Origin: a virus | DNA: 64,000 bases | Strand: one strand, 5' to 3' | UHGV virus genome: UHGV-0120889 | Part shown: positions 3,803 to 56,102 of the stretch, in pieces | How the letters are laid out: every line of letters starts with the position of its first letter | How positions within the stretch are numbered: position 1 is the first letter of the stretch | Position numbers and translations under genes: made by a program | Notes under the pieces: model-generated | What the model was told of the DNA's origin: nothing | Databases searched by the model: none | Seen by the model: only the letters and a program-made list of their open reading frames with translations

Positions 3803-5359
3803 TTAATTTTCCATGTTGGATATGGAATTATCTCTGGTTGATGACATCTTAGAAGTGCCGTTGCCAGTGGATCCTGCAGCCATTCCATCACCAGCCCTAC
3901 TGATGTCCTGGCCCAAGAGCTTCATCAGCTCTTCCTGATCCATGTCCTCGTCAAATCTTTCATCAAACCCGCCTACTTCAAGAATCTTATTAATTACTGC
4001 AGGAGTTTTTGGCAAGTAACCTACAGCACCGATCCTCTGGACAAACTTGGAGAAGCTCTCCATATCCACTTCTTCAATCAGACCAGGTTTCAGTTTAGGC
4101 ATATCATCATCTTCAAGGATGATACCATTCAATGCCAGAAGCTGCGGAATAAGATCTTTATTGAAGGCCTCAGTGATAATATCTATATCACGCTGAACAA
4201 AATGACCATGGATAGACTGTTTTGACTCAGACAGAGAGAAGGACCCAACGTTATCGTTACCGAGGTTAATAAAGCCAGCACCGAAACGGTCAAGAATCGC
4301 CTTCTTACGGGCATCAATCAAATCTTTAGTGGAATACTGCTTACCCATACCGTCAACCCCCTTCAGGGTCATGGAGTAAAGCTCTTTACCAGACTTATCT
4401 CTATCAGACGGAAGTATAAAGAAACTTTGCTCACCACTATGGGCGTTTGCTGCGTCAAGCATAAGGTCTGCAACCATTCTCCCTTCCATTGAATTCGGGT
4501 CAATGCTGGCCTTGTTCAAAATATTGGAAGGAATTTTCAGCTCAAGCACACCACCAAGGTCTTTGGAACAGCCAACAACCTCAAGGTTTTCAATCAGAAC
4601 TTTCTCACGGAAAGATCTGTAGCAACCTATCATCGGTGACACACCTGCAGGGTTAGATTCTGTTCCTGACAGGGTCATGAGCATAAGCTTTTTAGCAGGG
4701 ATGAAAATTTCAGGCTCATTAAAGCCTTTTGAAGGCATTGCAGCAAGAGGTCCAGCCCAGCGTGCATTCTGAGTGTTTAGAAATGCATTAGGTGATTGAT
4801 AAATACCTGTCAGTGTTCTACTATTCTTGTCAAAGACAAACGGCTCTGATCTGGACAAACTGGCCTGAGGTCGGAATGCAATTTTATCAATAAGAAGCAT
4901 CCCGGCATATTTACCTTCTTTCTCTCTGCGGTATACTTTCTCAAACAGTGAAAAACCATACTCGTTAAAGGTAGCTGCACTTCTTGCAATATCTCGAAGA
5001 GTTTGTTGGTTTGCCAAATTACGCAAAGAATACTCTATAAGCTCGGCAGCTTTCTTAGAGTCTTCACTTTTAACATTATAAAGGATCTTAAAATCATTAA
5101 ATGCTTTCGTGATGAAAACATATTTTGTATCTAAGGCAGTAGCAACTGTGGAATCACATTTCATAGTCTCCACTGTAGCAATCAGCTGAGGCCAACGCAA
5201 TTCCTCAACCATCATAGATTGCGATTCTGCCATAATTTGGGAAAGTGCGCCAGAACCGATCTCACTCATACGAACATTATGAGTTGGTGCGCCTGCGTTC
5301 CCAGATTTATTCACAGTTTTGGCTGTGGCGTTGTGTTTCCTGCGGTTCTTTTTGGACAC
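3803..5359 (-). CDS. portal protein
   Basis: 518 aa ORF immediately downstream of terminase large subunit on same strand; size and position typical of portal. Confidence 0.65.
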   Translation of the reverse strand: MSKKNRRKHNATAKTVNKSGNAGAPTHNVRMSEIGSGALSQIMAESQSMMVEELRWPQLIATVETMKCDSTVATALDTKYVFITKAFNDFKILYNVKSEDSKKAAELIEYSLRNLANQQTLRDIARSAATFNEYGFSLFEKVYRREKEGKYAGMLLIDKIAFRPQASLSRSEPFVFDKNSRTLTGIYQSPNAFLNTQNARWAGPLAAMPSKGFNEPEIFIPAKKLMLMTLSGTESNPAGVSPMIGCYRSFREKVLIENLEVVGCSKDLGGVLELKIPSNILNKASIDPNSMEGRMVADLMLDAANAHSGEQSFFILPSDRDKSGKELYSMTLKGVDGMGKQYSTKDLIDARKKAILDRFGAGFINLGNDNVGSFSLSESKQSIHGHFVQRDIDIITEAFNKDLIPQLLALNGIILEDDDMPKLKPGLIEEVDMESFSKFVQRIGAVGYLPKTPAVINKILEVGGFDERFDEDMDQEELMKLLGQDISRAGDGMAAGSTGNGTSKMSSTRDNSISNMEN

Positions 5360-5461
5360 AAGCTTTACCCCTCAAAACAGTATAACAAAATAGCCCTCGT
5401 GTTAGAGGGCTAGTATCTCCGATTACTCTATTCTACCACATCTAATTAAGATTGGCAACAC

Positions 5462-6583
5462 TTAGATAAAACGCTTGAACATAGAAGGTGATGAGATTGA
5501 TGGAATCACACAAGGAAGTGCTACTTCCTCTTTCTCCAGGAAATTAATAGCAGAAGCTACACAGTCAGCCCAGTCGTCTTTTCTGTTAAATGTTGATCTT
5601 TCCCCGTTGAATTTTTCAAGTTCAGTCAGAAATGCTTCCAGAGTATCAGGATGGAAACTGGATTTTACAATCCTCACCATTCCTTGTTGGGCAAGATTGG
5701 CAAAAGGTGAGAACCTTGTCAGTTTAGATTTGTTGGAAGGCATTGGGTCTTCTTCAACCCTAAACCCTTCGGCAAGCAAGGATCTGGAGGAGGTTAAGAA
5801 CTCACTCTTACCTGCCTGACCGGGGTCCACAGAGAATACGATTATACAATCATCACCATCAAACTGCGCCTGTTTCCTGATGATCACATCTCGTTCACCA
5901 GCCTTTTTACAGAACTTGCCTTCTAGACCTGTGGAATACCTCCCGTCATCCACGTTCTCAGGACAATAATCACCGGACAGGTAATAAAAGCCGTCGCTAT
6001 CTTTACTTACCTTAACACTGGCGGTAAAGTCAGGAAATTTATTACCGGAAGTTCTCTCGGTTCCTGCCTTATCCCATGCCCTGCAAGATACTGATCCAAG
6101 GGGTACTCTATCGGCATCACGAAGGAAAGATCTTTGAAAATAGTTTGCGCCCTCAGGCTTTGCAAACCAGTTACCATGAAGAAGCTGAGCTTTTTCCAGT
6201 TCCGGCAGACCTTCAAGGAAAGCAAGGTATTCTGGGTTGTCTCTTAAGCAAACAGGATTATCGAATATTGTTGCGCCTATAAACGAGAATGACAACGGTC
6301 TTGGCTTGATCTCCACACCAAGTCCGTTAACCGTGGTGTATTTCTCTATCAACTCTTCTTTAGAGTCCCCCCAGATAAATTCACCGTCGCGTCGGATAAA
6401 ATATCTTTTCTTACCGCATTTCTCCGGATCTGGATACCCTTCATCGTCCAACCACCACCTAACCAGTTTGGCAAGCATGTGTTCTGAATCGGGGTTACAG
6501 CTGATAACCATTCTTGATGGATACTTTGACTGAGATCGCAGACGAGACATCAGATAGTCTATCTGCTCCCATTCGAATTGTGT
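5462..6583 (-). CDS. terminase large subunit, exon 2 (C-terminal part of ATPase plus nuclease domain)
   Basis: Frame is open from 6583 (after in-frame TAA); begins TQFEWEQIDYLMSRLRSQ...MVISCNPDS, the expected continuation after Walker B. Exon start is placed at the proposed 3' splice site. Confidence 0.7.
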   Translation of the reverse strand, partial: TQFEWEQIDYLMSRLRSQSKYPSRMVISCNPDSEHMLAKLVRWWLDDEGYPDPEKCGKKRYFIRRDGEFIWGDSKEELIEKYTTVNGLGVEIKPRPLSFSFIGATIFDNPVCLRDNPEYLAFLEGLPELEKAQLLHGNWFAKPEGANYFQRSFLRDADRVPLGSVSCRAWDKAGTERTSGNKFPDFTASVKVSKDSDGFYYLSGDYCPENVDDGRYSTGLEGKFCKKAGERDVIIRKQAQFDGDDCIIVFSVDPGQAGKSEFLTSSRSLLAEGFRVEEDPMPSNKSKLTRFSPFANLAQQGMVRIVKSSFHPDTLEAFLTELEKFNGERSTFNRKDDWADCVASAINFLEKEEVALPCVIPSISSPSMFKRFI

Positions 6584-6899
6584 CGTTTATGTTCGGGCAA
6601 GGTCGCTAGTCTTGCCCCGCCATTTTCAGGCAGCTGCATGTCTCCATGCAGACCAGACTATATCTTATAAGCGACAACAACCGCTTATCCTCCCGTTTCG
6701 AATCGCTTGATTCTACGTCTTTCGACTAGTCGTTGAACGTTCATCCTCTCGGATGCTTCGCTGCGGATTATCTAAATTAACACACTGTTACCATACCTTC
6801 GATCTCTCTTCGAAGCCTCTATCATGTTACCATGACAGGTTGGTGGTATTAATAGTAAAGATTTCCCCGCAATTAGGGAGGTTTTACGAGAGCTACAAA
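6584..6899 (-). ncRNA. group I self-splicing intron (ORF-less) in terminase large subunit gene
   Basis: Minus-strand hallmarks in canonical order: exon ends GAGGGU then UAA; internal guide GCUCUC (plus 6888-6893) pairs with exon end; P-like AAUUGCGGGGAAA (plus 6863-6875); R-like GUUCAACGACUA (plus 6723-6738); S-like AAGAUAUAGUC (plus 6656-6666); terminal G at 6584. Confidence 0.7.
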
Positions 6900-6902
6900 T
6901 TA

Positions 6903-7328
6903 ACCCTCATCGAAGCAAACCATGGTGTACTCAAGCCCTTGATGGTTAAGCTTATCTTGTACATACTCCATGTGGCAGTATTTTACAACAGCTCCCTTTT
7001 TGCTTCTATCCCACTTGCCAGTGTTCGGATCAAACCGTGGAAAAATGAACTTATGATCCTTCTCTCTGAACTTTGGCTTAATGTTTTCAGGCAGATCACT
7101 ATAAATAGCTACCGCTTTAGGCCATAGTCCACCCTCACCTTCCAACTGCGGGGTTGTTCTTCGGAACATAACCACAGAGCTGTGGGGGTCATCAATAATT
7201 TTAAGTGGCATCAATTGCAAGAGGAACGACTTGCCAGACCCTGCGGCACCGCCGATTACCAAAATATCTGCATCGTTTTCGAGGATCATCTTCTGCTTTT
7301 CAGAACACGGTCCGTAAATCTTAGACAT
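6903..7328 (-). CDS. terminase large subunit, exon 1 (N-terminal ATPase: Walker A and B)
   Basis: Walker A VIGGAAGSGKSF and Walker B MVCFDEG; frame hits TAA (6900-6902) immediately after the Gly codon, which is the first codon of the intron. Confidence 0.75.
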
Positions 7329-8431: not shown

Positions 8432-8508
8432 TGGTCTCCACGGAGTGATTCGAACACTCGACCTCCTGATCCCAAATCAGGCGCTCTACCAAGCTGAGCT
8501 ACGCGGAG
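8432..8508 (-). tRNA. tRNA-Pro (anticodon UGG)
   Basis: Hand-folded cloverleaf: acceptor CUCCGCG/CGUGGAG, D-arm GCUC..GAGC, anticodon stem CCUGA/UCAGG with loop UUUGGGA, T-arm GAGUG-UUCGAAU-CACUC, encoded CCA. Confidence 0.8.
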
Positions 8509-8519
8509 TATTTATTATT

Positions 8520-8594
8520 TGGTGGCCCTGGGTGGAATTGAACCACCGTCTGGCGATTATGAGTCGCTTGCTTGAACCTTCCAGCTACAGGGCC
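8520..8594 (-). tRNA. tRNA with anticodon CAU (Met or lysidine-modified Ile)
   Basis: Acceptor GGCCCUG/CAGGGCC, anticodon loop CUCAUAA, T-arm GGUGG-UUCAAUU-CCACC, encoded CCA; Met versus Ile2 cannot be told from sequence. Confidence 0.7.
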
Positions 8595-8595
8595 A

Positions 8596-8671
8596 TGGTG
8601 CTGATGGCAGGACTTGAACCTGCAACCTATTGATTACAAATCAATTGCACTACCAATTGTGCTACATCAGC
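8596..8671 (-). tRNA. tRNA-Thr (anticodon UGU)
   Basis: Acceptor GCUGAUG/CAUCAGC, D-arm GCAC..GUGC, anticodon stem AUUGA/UCAAU with loop UUUGUAA, T-arm GCAGG-UUCAAGU-CCUGC, encoded CCA. Confidence 0.8.
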
Positions 8672-8679
8672 AAAAAAGG

Positions 8680-8776
8680 TGCTAGGTGATGGAATCGAAC
8701 CACCTATGTATTCAACGACTACCTCGTCTATTTTCAGGATTAAAAATCCTCGCCCTTGCCAAAGGGCTTACCTAGC
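8680..8776 (-). tRNA. atypical long tRNA-like gene (about 97 nt), anticodon uncertain (candidate UUU) or pseudo-tRNA
   Basis: Perfect 7-bp acceptor GCUAGGU/ACCUAGC, D-arm GCCC-UUUGGCAA-GGGC and T-arm GGUGG-UUCGAUU-CCAUC, but about 30 extra nt between a short AGGA/UCCU stem (loop UUUUUAA) and the T-arm; no encoded CCA. Confidence 0.4.
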
Positions 8777-8874
8777 TCAGTATGTTGACCATGTTGCTAG
8801 TCGGCGATGACGACTGTAACATTTGATAATCCGGTTCTGCTTCCGGCTTTCGCTTAATTACAAGGTCAACAATA

Positions 8875-8965
8875 TGGCTGAGGGTAATGGAATCGAACCA
8901 TCATCGAGTCATCCTCAACGGGACGGTTTTCAAGACCGCTTGAGCACCATTGCTCCCTACCCTCA
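8875..8965 (-). tRNA. tRNA-Ser (anticodon UGA), long variable arm
   Basis: Acceptor UGAGGGU/ACCCUCA, anticodon stem GCGGU/ACCGU with loop CUUGAAA, long variable arm, T-loop UUCGAUU, discriminator G plus CCA. Confidence 0.7.
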
Positions 8966-9079
8966 TTTATAAACAATACTGATAATGACACTGATTTTCG
9001 AGCAGTTAGTGACTAGTATAAACGACGATAAATATCAATGCCATTATCTGTATGATTTATGCATTTAAAACTATAAATT

Positions 9080-9166
9080 TGGTGGGGAGTGGTGGAGTCG
9101 AACCACCCGAGTCGTAATGACAATAGATTTACAGTCTACACCGCTACCTCTACGGGATAACTCCCC
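9080..9166 (-). tRNA. tRNA-Tyr (anticodon GUA), long variable arm
   Basis: Acceptor GGGGAGU/ACUCCCC, anticodon stem GUAGA/UCUAU with loop CUGUAAA, T-arm GGUGG-UUCGACU-CCACC, encoded CCA. Confidence 0.75.
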
Positions 9167-9170
9167 AATT

Positions 9171-9245
9171 TGGCACCCCGTACTGGACTCGAACCAGTGT
9201 CAACGGCTTAGAAGGCCGCTGCTTTATCCACTAAGCTAACAGGGC
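9171..9245 (-). tRNA. tRNA-Arg (anticodon UCU)
   Basis: Acceptor GCCCUGU/ACGGGGU (two G.U), anticodon stem GCGGC/GCCGU with loop CUUCUAA, T-arm ACUGG-UUCGAGU-CCAGU, encoded CCA. Confidence 0.75.
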
Positions 9246-9341
9246 ACTGGGTGGCTTTCTTTTACACCTTAGCCGCCAGAAAAGGTGGGAGACCATGTTT
9301 ACAATATTACACTGTTAAGCAAAGTTTGTCAAGAAAATATT

Positions 9342-12190: not shown

Positions 12191-12745
12191 TTACTCCACG
12201 CTGTCAATAGCAAGACTCATTGCAATACGGTATGCCTCTTCTAATGGTAAGAGTCTCCCCCACACATCCCAACCGACATCAAACTGCCTGCCAAACAACT
12301 GCTGTGTGGTTCCGTGAGCATGACCGAACAGTTGGACCGATCCGTGAGGCTTTCTGTTCCACTTTGCAAACTGGTAATGGCTCATACAGATCAAATTCTT
12401 GTTGTGGCGAAGCTCGTAATAATCTACAACCTCATGACCGAACTCTTTCATAATTCTGACAGTCGTCCTTGTGTCATGGTTACCACGAACAAGAATAATA
12501 TGTCCGTTCAACATATTTAGAACATCTGGGAGCAATTTGTTAATATTCTTATCATTAGTGCACGCAATATCTCCTAAGTGAAACACAGTGTCTGCAGGTG
12601 ACACAACAGAGTTCCACTTGGTGATGATCCCCGCATTCATACTGTCAAGATTGTGATCATACTGAGATCTGTGTTTTTGACATGAGTCAAACTCCATGAC
12701 CCGCTGGTGGAGAAAGTGTGTGTCGCTTGTTACAAAGTATTTCAT
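12191..12745 (-). CDS. calcineurin-like metallophosphoesterase
   Basis: Motifs SDTHF, GDIACTND, GNHD, GHAHG; track ORF trimmed to ATG at 12743-12745 (MKYFVTSDTHF) to remove overlap with upstream kinase gene. Confidence 0.65.
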   Translation of the reverse strand: MKYFVTSDTHFLHQRVMEFDSCQKHRSQYDHNLDSMNAGIITKWNSVVSPADTVFHLGDIACTNDKNINKLLPDVLNMLNGHIILVRGNHDTRTTVRIMKEFGHEVVDYYELRHNKNLICMSHYQFAKWNRKPHGSVQLFGHAHGTTQQLFGRQFDVGWDVWGRLLPLEEAYRIAMSLAIDSVE

Positions 12746-12752
12746 ACATTCC

Positions 12753-13220
12753 TCATTTAAGTTTAATGCAGTTTTTAAGCTGGCGTTCCATACGATCCAC
12801 AACCCTGTCTGGAACATCATGAATGCTTTTACTACCATGGCGGTTTTCAACCACGATTACGGTATAACTATACCCATGACTGATCGCCATGTCAATATAT
12901 TCTTGCACATATTTTTCTTTTGTAAATGTATTACTTACCACGATACGGTCGTATCCCATACGCATCATATCTTCTACGTTATCTTTGCACCATTTTGCTG
13001 CAAGTGTTACTTTACTTGCATCCCAGTTGTAATTTCCATCATCGTCGTACCAGAACATGTCGTTCTCAAAATGTGGATACAGACCTTCTAAAGATAGCGC
13101 ACTTGCCAGTGTTGATTTGCCAGACCCTGGTAGACCACGCACGATATATAGCATTTTAGACATAGTAATCCTCCGTTTTAATTTCAACGATAGTATACCT
13201 AACTGTTTTGTTAATTTCAA
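12753..13220 (-). CDS. P-loop kinase (polynucleotide kinase-like)
   Basis: Walker A GLPGSGKST near N-terminus, 155 aa; operon partner of the metallophosphoesterase. Confidence 0.5.
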   Translation of the reverse strand: MKLTKQLGILSLKLKRRITMSKMLYIVRGLPGSGKSTLASALSLEGLYPHFENDMFWYDDDGNYNWDASKVTLAAKWCKDNVEDMMRMGYDRIVVSNTFTKEKYVQEYIDMAISHGYSYTVIVVENRHGSKSIHDVPDRVVDRMERQLKNCIKLK

Positions 13221-13263
13221 GTGTTGACACTAGGTTATTTGTGTGGCAGGATAGACTGACAAA

Positions 13264-14199
13264 ATGACAAATGAGGAACGTATGATGAAGTATTTTAATG
13301 CAGACGACCTAGTTGACAAAGGTCTTGTAACCAGCAGATATCACCCAGACCTTGGGTTAAAGATCTATAAATATGCCAGAAAAGTATTCTACAACAACTT
13401 ATGGCATTTGTCTCCTCGATTACTGGAGTGCCGAGGCATTGTTGTCGGTAATGAAGGAAATGTTGTGGCATGGCCCTTTACAAAAGTGTTTAACTTGGGA
13501 GAAAACTCCACCAACCTGCCTGACAATAAGCTTGTGACGGCGGTAGAGAAAAAGAACGGATTCCTTGGTGTGGTGTCATCTCATAAAGGTGAACTATTGT
13601 TCTCAACAACCGGGTCTCTTGATTCTCCATATTGTAACCTTGCAAAGGAAACCATCCAGGAGCAATGTGGTAATTTAGATCTTATCAAGAAGGTTATGGG
13701 CAATGAAAATATGACATTCATGTTTGAAATTTGTCACCCATCAGATCCGCATATTGTTCAGGAAGATCATGGCGCATATTTGATAGGTTGCAGATATAAT
13801 GATTCTGGAATAATGCTACCAGAAGCAGCTTTAGATTGGATTGCCAAATACCTTGGTGCAAAACGTCCTCACACTGTGCGTGAAATTCCGTTCAGTTATG
13901 CAAAAGAATTAGCTGCAGAAACAAGAGGTGAAGGGTATATGATTCGTAAGCCTTACTACCCTTATGATCTGCAGCTGAAGATTAAGTCTCCATACTATCT
14001 GGCACAGAAGGCCGTAATGAGGGGTAAAGCTTGGAAGATTTGGGATGATGATATCTTTAAACGTGTTGACGAAGAGTTTTACGGCATGGTAAACTTCATT
14101 CGTAACAACTACACAGAGGATGTATGGAACTGCCTCCTGGAGCAGGAACGCCGTGAGATACTCGATTACTATTTCCACAACGAGAACTATATGCAATGA
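13264..14199 (+). CDS. putative RNA ligase / covalent nucleotidyltransferase
   Basis: Motif-I-like VEKKNGFLGVV (KxNG); divergently transcribed from the kinase/phosphoesterase pair. RNA versus DNA ligase not resolvable by eye. Confidence 0.5.
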   Translation: MTNEERMMKYFNADDLVDKGLVTSRYHPDLGLKIYKYARKVFYNNLWHLSPRLLECRGIVVGNEGNVVAWPFTKVFNLGENSTNLPDNKLVTAVEKKNGFLGVVSSHKGELLFSTTGSLDSPYCNLAKETIQEQCGNLDLIKKVMGNENMTFMFEICHPSDPHIVQEDHGAYLIGCRYNDSGIMLPEAALDWIAKYLGAKRPHTVREIPFSYAKELAAETRGEGYMIRKPYYPYDLQLKIKSPYYLAQKAVMRGKAWKIWDDDIFKRVDEEFYGMVNFIRNNYTEDVWNCLLEQERREILDYYFHNENYMQ

Positions 14200-55832: not shown

Positions 55833-55922
55833 TTTGTTTTCCTCTTCTTGTTCCAGGTGGCGGACCATTCCACCGCCTTATGTATTATGCTTTGTAAGAT
55901 GGTTGTTTGTTTTCAAACTATT

Positions 55923-56102
55923 TTAACGATAATCATCGTACGCTTTATTAACCTGGCGAATATAACATTCAAAAGCCAGATCAATAGATTTATATTCACG
56001 GATATACTCACCATAGGAAACCACATACATTTCTATAGCTTCCTCATATGCGAGGAGAATAGAATCCAAGCCTACGATCTCAGTCTTTGCAATAATAGCC
56101 AT
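55923..56102 (-). CDS. hypothetical small protein (59 aa)
   Basis: MAIIAKTEIVGLDSILLAYEEAIEMYVVSYGEYIREYKSIDLAFECYIRQVNKAYDDYR with RBS AAGAGGA. Confidence 0.4.
   Translation of the reverse strand: MAIIAKTEIVGLDSILLAYEEAIEMYVVSYGEYIREYKSIDLAFECYIRQVNKAYDDYR

Follow-up and report, generated by a model that had tools for sequence, protein, structure and literature searches.

The window analysed here, the whole 64,000-nucleotide (nt) stretch of virus genome UHGV-0120889, belongs to a Vequintavirus (rV5-like coliphage), and its transfer RNA (tRNA) region shows 100% identity to Escherichia phage slur16 and 98.4% to phage rV5. Every RNA gene of the tRNA cluster is on the minus strand, and transcription follows the order Arg(UCU), Tyr(GUA), Ser(UGA), a 98-nt spacer, an unusual tRNA-like gene that we call gene X, Thr(UGU), Met/Ile2(CAU) and Pro(UGG). 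Gene X is a 97-nt RNA gene on the minus strand (8680-8776), with G1 at 8776. An initial annotation had described it as an atypical 97-nt tRNA-like gene with perfect acceptor, D and T arms, an anticodon region that folds only as a 4-base-pair (bp) stem with the loop UUUUUAA, about 30 nt before the T arm and no encoded CCA, although its neighbours encode one. Direct reading of the sequence agrees with this description, and ARAGORN, Rfam, the minimum free energy (MFE) fold and the comparative data concur that a tRNA-like gene is present; the strand, which had been left unstated, is minus. Read from 5′ to 3′, the full order of X is given below, preceded by the gene as a whole.

8680-8776, minus strand: whole tRNA-like RNA X, from sequence reading, the Rfam tRNA model (35.5 bits), ARAGORN (tRNA-???) and the family covariance model R1 (106.4 bits, E = 2.6e-26).
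8770-8776, minus strand: acceptor 5′ strand GCUAGGU, pairing with 8681-8687 over 7 bp; double compensatory changes occur in 5 of the 7 acceptor pairs of the family.
8769-8768, minus strand: A8 and A9, just 5′ of the D arm.
8752-8767, minus strand: D arm GCCC-UUUGGCAA-GGGC; 3 of the 4 D-stem pairs covary in the family.
8751, minus strand: G26.
8736-8750, minus strand: anticodon-like arm AGGA-UUUUUAA-UCCU, 15 nt, with 4 bp (AGGA/UCCU) and a 7-nt loop, or 5 bp and a 5-nt loop if a U-A pair forms; the 4 stem pairs are present in 28/28 sequences and 2 covary.
8729-8735, minus strand: single-stranded 5′ junction GAAAAUA, unpaired in the MFE fold, with invariant alignment columns (GAAAA nearly invariant).
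8714-8728, minus strand: variable-region hairpin GACGA-GGUAG-UCGUU; a hairpin sits at the same place in 21/21 distinct variable regions folded.
8705-8713, minus strand: single-stranded 3′ junction GAAUACAUA; AUACAUA is invariant in 26/28 sequences, and the Justusliebigvirus type reads AUACGAAA.
8688-8704, minus strand: T arm GGUGG-UUCGAUU-CCAUC with a canonical T loop (sequence, Rfam); 3 of its 5 pairs covary.
8681-8687, minus strand: acceptor 3′ strand ACCUAGC, from sequence and family covariation.
8680, minus strand: discriminator A73.
8672-8679, minus strand: 3′ trailer of CC (8679-8678) and U6 (8677-8672), reaching up to the first base of tRNA-Thr (8671).

In the window, the variable region (GAAAAUA, hairpin and GAAUACAUA) thus amounts to 31 nt, and the gene ends in A-CC-UUUUUU, so that CC is encoded but CCA is not, while all six neighbouring tRNAs (Pro, Met, Thr, Ser, Tyr, Arg) encode CCA. 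The body has the canonical 7-bp acceptor, 5-bp T stem, 7-nt T loop (UUCRANY) and G18 G19 elbow. ARAGORN, one of the predictors with which the initial annotation had proposed to check the gene, did not reject it and reported 'tRNA-??? (atcc)' at 8678-8776. The score of the Rfam tRNA model compares with a gathering score of 29 (E = 5.9e-5, lax filters), and in its alignment position 27 is deleted and the variable region carries an insertion of 26 nt. The cloverleaf is also the MFE fold (−34.2 kcal/mol, z = −3.66), and none of 200 shuffled sequences was equally stable. An alternative drawing of the D arm, predicted by RNAalifold, has a 6-bp stem and a 4-nt loop; its two extra U-A pairs are invariant, and the covariation of G19 with T-loop position 56 fits either drawing. 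A8 and U14 are invariant in the family, the reverse of the U8/A14 of canonical tRNAs.

Three other readings of this stretch were tried and rejected. The fold behind the AUCC call of ARAGORN relies on a stem AUUUU/AAAAU that has no counterpart outside Vequintavirus and Avunavirus. Bacterial tRNA introns are group I introns of at least 200 nt; an intron in X was discarded as no bulge-helix-bulge is present and excision of the variable insertion leaves the anticodon arm short. A ribozyme was discarded as well, since 'CUGAAAA ... GAAU' is only superficially hammerhead-like and Rfam gave no match at E <= 1 besides tRNA.

Homologues of X were gathered from public phage records, IMG/VR and metagenomes by BLAST, by scans with IUPAC patterns (including a more permissive one) and with covariance model R1. 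They occur in five genera of the Vequintavirinae and in Justusliebigvirus, which lies outside this subfamily, in the Stephanstirmvirinae. Genera were assigned from record taxonomy: Vequintavirus (rV5, MaxTheCat), Avunavirus (Av-05, 18-1-2), Seunavirus (NINP13076, EspYZU14), Mydovirus (Mydo, Ro1), Henunavirus (Hena1) and Justusliebigvirus (PaulScherrer). Members score 76-119 bits with R1 and ordinary tRNAs at most 30 bits, with a single X per locus. X is found whether the genome has 6 tRNAs or more than 20, and is retained by tRNA-reduced lineages; relatives with more than 20 tRNAs hold canonical tRNA-Lys(UUU), Gly(UCC) and Cys(GCA) beside it. The gene always lies within a tRNA cluster and usually starts 2 nt after the CCA of the preceding tRNA. 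X is a core RNA of the rV5-like phages, taken as these five genera plus Justusliebigvirus. Neither 185,579 bacterial and archaeal genomes (GTDB representatives) nor the E. coli complete genomes held a match, and a host origin was rejected for this reason. X probably descends from a tRNA. In one Seunavirus-like contig its closest normal tRNA is tRNA-Cys(GCA), which has U73, the D loop ..UGGCAA and a similar anticodon loop (CUGCAAA versus CAUCAAA in X) in common with it; this similarity in sequence may serve as a lead on ancestry only.

Public records treat the gene inconsistently, as tRNA-???, tRNA-OTHER, tRNA-Lys (in the BASEL records), tRNA-Pseudo, tRNA-sup(tca), two small 'hypothetical protein' coding sequences or not at all. 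The copy of Proteus phage Mydo (L051 299-500) is entered as two such coding sequences with ribosome-binding sites, and that of Erwinia phage Hena1 (L055 601-708) as 'tRNA-TERM / tRNA-sup(tca)'. X goes unmentioned in the rV5 genome paper, which counts six tRNAs (PMC3606486). Among the relatives, ARAGORN called none and none was reported at the Rfam gathering threshold. Rfam 15 has no family for X, and a literature search on Vequintavirinae, rV5 and relatives found no paper that describes it.

Some matches from these searches do not belong to the family. One pattern match (L023) and four AT-rich ones (L007, L011, L013, L022) were discarded as chance. Within the window, R1 gave a weak second match at 55848-55957 (minus strand, 17.5 bits) that is mostly intergenic, with its 'acceptor' partly in a coding region. 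It reads GAAAAC ... AAUACAUAAGGCGG-UGGAAUGGU-CCGCCACCUGG, resembling the 3′ junction, T arm and acceptor strand of X, with conservation of part of it in Phapecoctavirus-type phages. The window shows no enrichment of the motif AATACATARGG (5 observed versus 2.7 expected), and the match is probably due to chance or to a hairpin or terminator. ARAGORN made other odd calls in related contigs that are distinct from X, namely 'tRNA-Pyl (cta)' with an amber-suppressor-like anticodon, 'tRNA-??? (ga)' and 'tRNA-??? (ggca)' (L034 7862-7934; L040 3313-3387; L019 5994-6079).

Is X a functional RNA or the remnant of a tRNA? Low tRNA-finder scores (35.5 bits; '???' from ARAGORN) would suit a decayed pseudogene or a tRNA gene disrupted by an insertion, and some records say tRNA-Pseudo or leave the gene unannotated. 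We counted pairs in the four cloverleaf stems and the tertiary pair 19-56 (21 pairs) across 28 distinct X sequences. Stem cells were paired in 99.7% of cases, and both partners changed in 14 of the 21 pairs (99 cells). The covariation score was 0.535 compared to 0.185 in shuffles, with none of 500 shuffles reaching the real values, and pairing fell to 32-45% when partners were slid by 1-3 columns as a control. The elbow pair itself is G19-C56 in 20 sequences and U19-A56 in the remaining 8, and unguided RNAalifold recovered the cloverleaf de novo. Within genera, substitutions sit at structure-neutral sites; in Vequintavirus they are few and confined to position 9, the hairpin loop, G-U/G-C switches and the trailer. 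We are therefore highly confident that X is a genuine, selected and structured RNA. The pseudogene option of the initial annotation is ruled out since compensatory changes in all four stems, in the variable hairpin and in the tertiary pair have kept cloverleaf and elbow across six genera; the gene is moreover single-copy and retained where most tRNAs were lost. We consider decay or disruption the most improbable of all explanations discussed here.

The feature that sets X apart is the domain in its variable region, which measures 31-42 nt across the family. It opens with GAAAA and closes with AUACAUA directly before the T stem. Both strands are nearly invariant and unpaired in all folds, while the adjacent stems covary. 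Between them stands a hairpin of about 15-27 nt (21 distinct variable regions), the stems of which are mutually unrelated (ACGG/CCGU, CCUCC/GGAGG, AAGUGA/UCACUU, GUUAGAC/GUCUAAC and others). Candidate junction pairings, of the D-loop UUU with GAAAA or of junction 1 with junction 2, involve partners that are all invariant and thus offer no covariation to read. The invariance of the junction strands suggests a specific contact surface. This bears on the idea that X acts in cis only, as a tRNA-shaped processing or stability signal that provides RNase P and 3′-end punctuation to the polycistronic tRNA transcript and then releases a functionless RNA. The constant position inside the cluster, usually 2 nt after the preceding CCA, would fit, as would the fact that acceptor, T arm and elbow, the determinants of RNase P, are the best conserved parts. 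However, such signals already come from the neighbouring tRNAs, and a cis signal leaves the invariant GAAAA and AUACAUA, the kept anticodon-like stem, the variable hairpin and the conserved U73-CCA unexplained, so that we regard it as unlikely.

The second unusual part is the arm in the place of the anticodon arm. Canonical tRNAs have a 5-bp anticodon stem with a 7-nt loop (PMC7609411). The arm of X is 14-16 nt long in every member, never 17, and has four always-paired positions with a 6-8-nt loop; an optional fifth pair forms in 20/28 sequences and gives 5 bp with 5-6 nt. X hence departs from the canonical arm of 5 bp, 7-nt loop, U33 and purine 37, the window copy having 4 bp and a 7-nt loop with U33 and A37 present. 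The loops are CAUCAAA, UAUCAAA or AAUCAAG in Henunavirus, Justusliebigvirus and several metagenome contigs; C-CAUCCA-G with the variants CAGCCA, CUUCCA, CCUCCA and CCUCAA in Seunavirus and Mydovirus; UUUAUAA in Avunavirus; UUUUUAA in Vequintavirus; and GUGAUA in one contig. Position 33 is U in functional tRNAs. Most members of the X family have A here and two have C, with U confined to Vequintavirus, Avunavirus and one contig (L030), and the central triplet varies between UCA, UCC, GCC, UAU and UUU. Most members have U as discriminator, against A in Vequintavirus and U or C in Avunavirus. Seunavirus, Mydovirus and Henunavirus encode CCA (U-CCA), whereas Vequintavirus (CCU), Avunavirus (U/C-ACA) and the Justusliebigvirus type (U-UCA or U-CCC) do without it.

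The short arm, the absence of U33 in most members, the changing loop length and triplet and the coexisting canonical isoacceptors indicate that decoding is not the conserved function of X; judged from these sequences, the family as a whole probably does not decode codons. They also bear on the possibility that X is an opal (UGA) suppressor or another recoding tRNA; with the 4-base anticodon AUCC that ARAGORN called in the window, it would be a frameshift suppressor. The probably ancestral loop CAUCAAA puts UCA at the anticodon, with A37 and A38; Hena1 and pEp_SNUABM_01 carry the annotation 'tRNA-TERM / tRNA-sup(tca)'; and U73 together with the closest similarity, to the phage's own tRNA-Cys, recalls Cys-type UGA decoders. 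Yet this reading rests on automated calls, the universal U33 is replaced by A33 in all UCA-type members, the stem has 4 bp, and the triplet is not conserved among close relatives (UCC, GCC, UAU, UUU), with UUU rather than UCA in the window. The stem of the ARAGORN fold in turn needs a run of U found only in Vequintavirus and Avunavirus. A suppressor therefore appears very unlikely.

What, then, could a phage gain from a tRNA that does not decode? We suggest, with a probability of about 0.5, that X is a selectively maintained, tRNA-derived mimic that is matured like a tRNA and engages a tRNA-recognising protein. X would be transcribed within the tRNA operon and excised as tRNAs are: RNase P would cut at G1, the 3′ end would be trimmed, and where CCA is not encoded the host CCA enzyme would presumably complete it. 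It is predicted to fold into a normal L-shape, which, together with the conserved acceptor end, suggests that it is made and handled like a tRNA and possibly bound by factors that read the elbow or acceptor. In this way X may offer a tRNA elbow, an acceptor end and the conserved junction strands to a protein that has tRNA as its usual partner. The best candidates for such a partner would be a tRNA-targeting defence nuclease or transferase, or an enzyme of tRNA maturation or charging. In Vequintavirus, the loop UUUUUAA and A73 have changed so as to match tRNA-Lys(UUU), which would point towards enzymes that recognise tRNA-Lys.

Two of the options put forward in the initial annotation remain. 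A tRNA with an unusual insertion describes the body and its large variable-region insertion correctly, but the arm is shortened in addition and the family pattern favours a non-decoding RNA over an ordinary tRNA. A tRNA-derived regulatory RNA comes closer, as A33, the loops of 6-8 nt and the variable triplet and discriminator favour a non-decoding tRNA-derived RNA, although a Lys-accepting role is conceivable in the Vequintavirus lineage.

More tentatively, X may found a phage-specific class of tRNA mimics, in which the GAAAA/hairpin/AUACAUA domain would be a dedicated module for binding, and thereby trapping or diverting, an immune effector that targets tRNA or some other tRNA-handling enzyme, with the Vequintavirus loop re-tuned to impersonate tRNA-Lys(UUU). 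Phage tRNAs can rescue from, or compete against, tRNA-cleaving immunity (PMC12409363, PMC11464382, PMC11555353), and a bacterial Schlafen also cuts tRNA-Lys(UUU) (PMC13056530). That the partner of X is a defence effector is, by this analogy, a possibility that we rate well below even odds; the link to defence is circumstantial and consists of the Lys-like loop with A73, the adjoining tRNA-Thr(UGU) and an RNA repair cassette nearby.

Several points weigh against a non-decoding mimic. The idea of a decoy draws on analogy. The acceptor end (G1-C72, C2-G71, U73 and, in three genera, CCA) is strongly conserved, which would fit an aminoacylated RNA too. The window copy has a textbook anticodon loop of 7 nt (U32 U33 UUU A37 A38). 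U33, UUU, A37 and A38 together with A73 make up the identity set of E. coli lysyl-tRNA synthetase (LysRS), so that decoding is possible in the Vequintavirus lineage. Moreover, in one report, engineered tRNAs with an extra hairpin in a long variable arm could stay translationally active (PMC7590224), and a large variable region alone is thus no bar to translation.

These points lead to the main rival, a nuclease-resistant Lys surrogate or decoy. It holds that the Vequintavirus X is a working, non-canonical tRNA-Lys(UUU), charged by the LysRS of the host and reading AAA and AAG, which replaces host tRNA-Lys cleaved by nucleases of the anticodon or its stem (PrrC, RloC, the PARIS effector AriB or Schlafen) and escapes these nucleases as a poor substrate owing to its altered anticodon stem and body. 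Besides the complete LysRS identity set and the activity of hairpin-tagged tRNAs, it can claim that U35 and A73 are derived compared to the sister genus Avunavirus (UUUAUAA; U73 or C73) and the rest of the family, that rV5-like phages have no canonical tRNA-Lys while larger relatives have one, and that the BASEL records label X as tRNA-Lys. The RNA repair cassette lies nearby, tRNA-Thr(UGU), which adjoins X, and tRNA-Lys(UUU) are the two main targets of AriB, and T5 tRNA variants rescue from PARIS (PMC12409363). Against this stand an anticodon stem of just 4 Watson-Crick pairs in an arm of 15 instead of 17 nt, the unencoded CCA of the window copy and the differences of Avunavirus at the key identity positions U35 and N73 with all else kept. 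The 31-nt domain, too, sits on the variable-arm side, from which class II synthetases approach the tRNA. Elsewhere in the family, X combines A33 or C33 with loops of 6 or 8 nt and stands beside a normal tRNA-Lys, which again argues that decoding is not its conserved function. We consider a Lys surrogate possible but doubtful.

Comparison with known systems places X outside the established classes. With class II tRNAs (Leu, Ser, Tyr), it has in common the 7-bp acceptor, the 5-bp T stem with the loop UUCGAUU, G18 G19, the 19-56 pair, a variable hairpin and the location in a tRNA operon. Class II variable arms, however, exceed 10 nt (roughly 10-24) and start right after positions 44-45, unlike the 31-42-nt region of X with 6-9 conserved unpaired nt on each side of the hairpin. 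X further differs in its anticodon arm of 14-16 instead of 17 nt, in A8/U14 instead of U8/A14 and in a triplet that is not one of Leu, Ser or Tyr. The window copy, with a 31-nt variable region, unpaired flanks of 7 and 9 nt, UUU and A73, is not a class II tRNA.

Selenocysteine tRNA (tRNA-Sec), selC* tRNA-Cys and allo-tRNAs (PMC5389517, PMC7609411) resemble X in the long variable arm, a possible 6-bp D stem with a 4-nt loop, UCA with U73 in many members and anticodons that vary on a constant body. However, acceptor and T stem of X measure 7/5 in 28/28 sequences rather than forming a branch of 13 bp (8/5, 9/4) or a rearranged one of 12 bp (8/4, 9/3), which separates X from tRNA-Sec and allo-tRNAs; in addition, its anticodon stem is shorter rather than longer, A33 occurs, and the window copy has UUU and A73. 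The tRNA-Lys(UUU) of phage T5 and viral tRNAs that neutralise PARIS or retron-Eco7 (PMC11464382, PMC12409363, PMC11555353) are alike in the Lys(UUU) loop and in an anticodon stem that differs from that of the host tRNA. The parallel to T5 tRNA-Lys extends to the neighbour of the window copy, tRNA-Thr(UGU) being the other main AriB target. T5 tRNAs are nevertheless canonical decoding tRNAs with a few point changes, whereas the arm of X is non-canonical and its body bears an extra domain.

The closest functional analogues of X would be the 'species 1' and 'species 2' RNAs of phage T4 (rnaC, rnaD), which are likewise stable small RNAs inside a phage tRNA cluster; we know of no function assigned to them. 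rnaC ends in a T arm and an acceptor-like stem, recalling X, but with 119-139 nt both RNAs are without the cloverleaf body that X keeps. Homology was rejected, as R1 matched only tRNA-Thr and tRNA-Leu at the T4 locus, with scores at the level of tRNAs. The non-decoding mimics mascRNA and YrlA may be counted as analogues likewise. Together with tRNA-Other of B. cereus (PMC3399842), mascRNA and the tRNA-like domain of the bacterial Y RNA YrlA have a tRNA shape, a degenerate anticodon arm and (proposed) processing by tRNA enzymes without decoding. X differs from them in being phage-specific, with a complete D arm and elbow and no similarity in sequence or model; the Rfam models of YrlA and mascRNA gave sub-threshold matches only on neighbouring true tRNAs and none on X.

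Phage tRNA genes are now being reread as weapons against tRNA-cleaving immunity (PARIS, retrons, PrrC, Schlafens), and X was never lost by this lineage of large virulent enterobacterial phages, even where most true tRNAs were shed. If X acts as a decoy or nuclease-proof surrogate, it would represent a new RNA-based counter-defence and explain part of why phages carry tRNAs; if it founds a mimic class, it would be an RNA-only anti-defence factor on a tRNA scaffold. A covariance model would fix its annotation, which is inconsistent in hundreds of public genomes, and the hypotheses are directly testable since X-bearing phages (rV5, the BASEL collection, PVP-SE1) are tractable.

The surroundings of X in the window comprise the following features.

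8875-9245, minus strand: upstream tRNAs Arg(UCU) (9171-9245), Tyr(GUA) (9080-9166) and Ser(UGA) (8875-8965), from ARAGORN and sequence.
8432-8671, minus strand: downstream tRNAs Thr(UGU) (8596-8671), Met/Ile2(CAU) (8520-8594) and Pro(UGG) (8432-8508), from ARAGORN and Rfam.
9304-9332, minus strand: sigma-70-like promoter TTGACA-17-TAATAT upstream of tRNA-Arg, from a consensus scan; the rV5 record has 'P(tRNA)' at the homologous place.
13264-14199 (plus strand), 12753-13220 (minus strand) and 12191-12850 (minus strand): open reading frames of the RNA repair cassette, 3-5 kb upstream of the tRNA cluster; their starts were set mechanically and the true starts may lie further inside.

The promoter is presumed to drive the tRNA operon that contains X. 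The cassette (12191-14199) encodes a T4 Rnl1-type RNA ligase (PF09511, E = 8e-15), a P-loop kinase (AAA_33) and a calcineurin-like metallophosphoesterase, labelled RNA ligase, polynucleotide kinase and phosphoesterase in BASEL phage MaxTheCat; ligase, kinase and phosphoesterase are the enzyme set of a heal-and-seal RNA repair pathway. The CAU tRNA at 8520-8594 (minus strand) is a tRNA-Met according to ARAGORN and the rV5 record, and a tRNA-Ile reading ATA (lysidine-dependent tRNA-Ile2) according to the BASEL record of MaxTheCat.

The 98-nt spacer between tRNA-Ser and X (8777-8874, minus strand) contains a core of about 68 nt (approximately 8792-8859) with 83-87% identity to phage lambda 44866-44952, a stretch without annotation in the late-operon leader, between orf-64 and S; further matches to the core occur in Salmonella phage ST1UNAM and the P1-like phage D6. 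When folded, the core forms two hairpins closed by the stem GUUGACC/GGUCAAC (z = −2.6), one hairpin pair being compensated in lambda, and neither Rfam nor ARAGORN gave a match to it. As X starts only 2 nt after the preceding tRNA in other genera, the element resembles a Vequintavirus-specific insertion. Elsewhere in the window (3803-7328), the large terminase gene lies in three segments on minus-strand open reading frames (6900-7328, 5462-6550 and 3803-5359), a split that the rV5 paper attributes to introns, one of them with a homing endonuclease.

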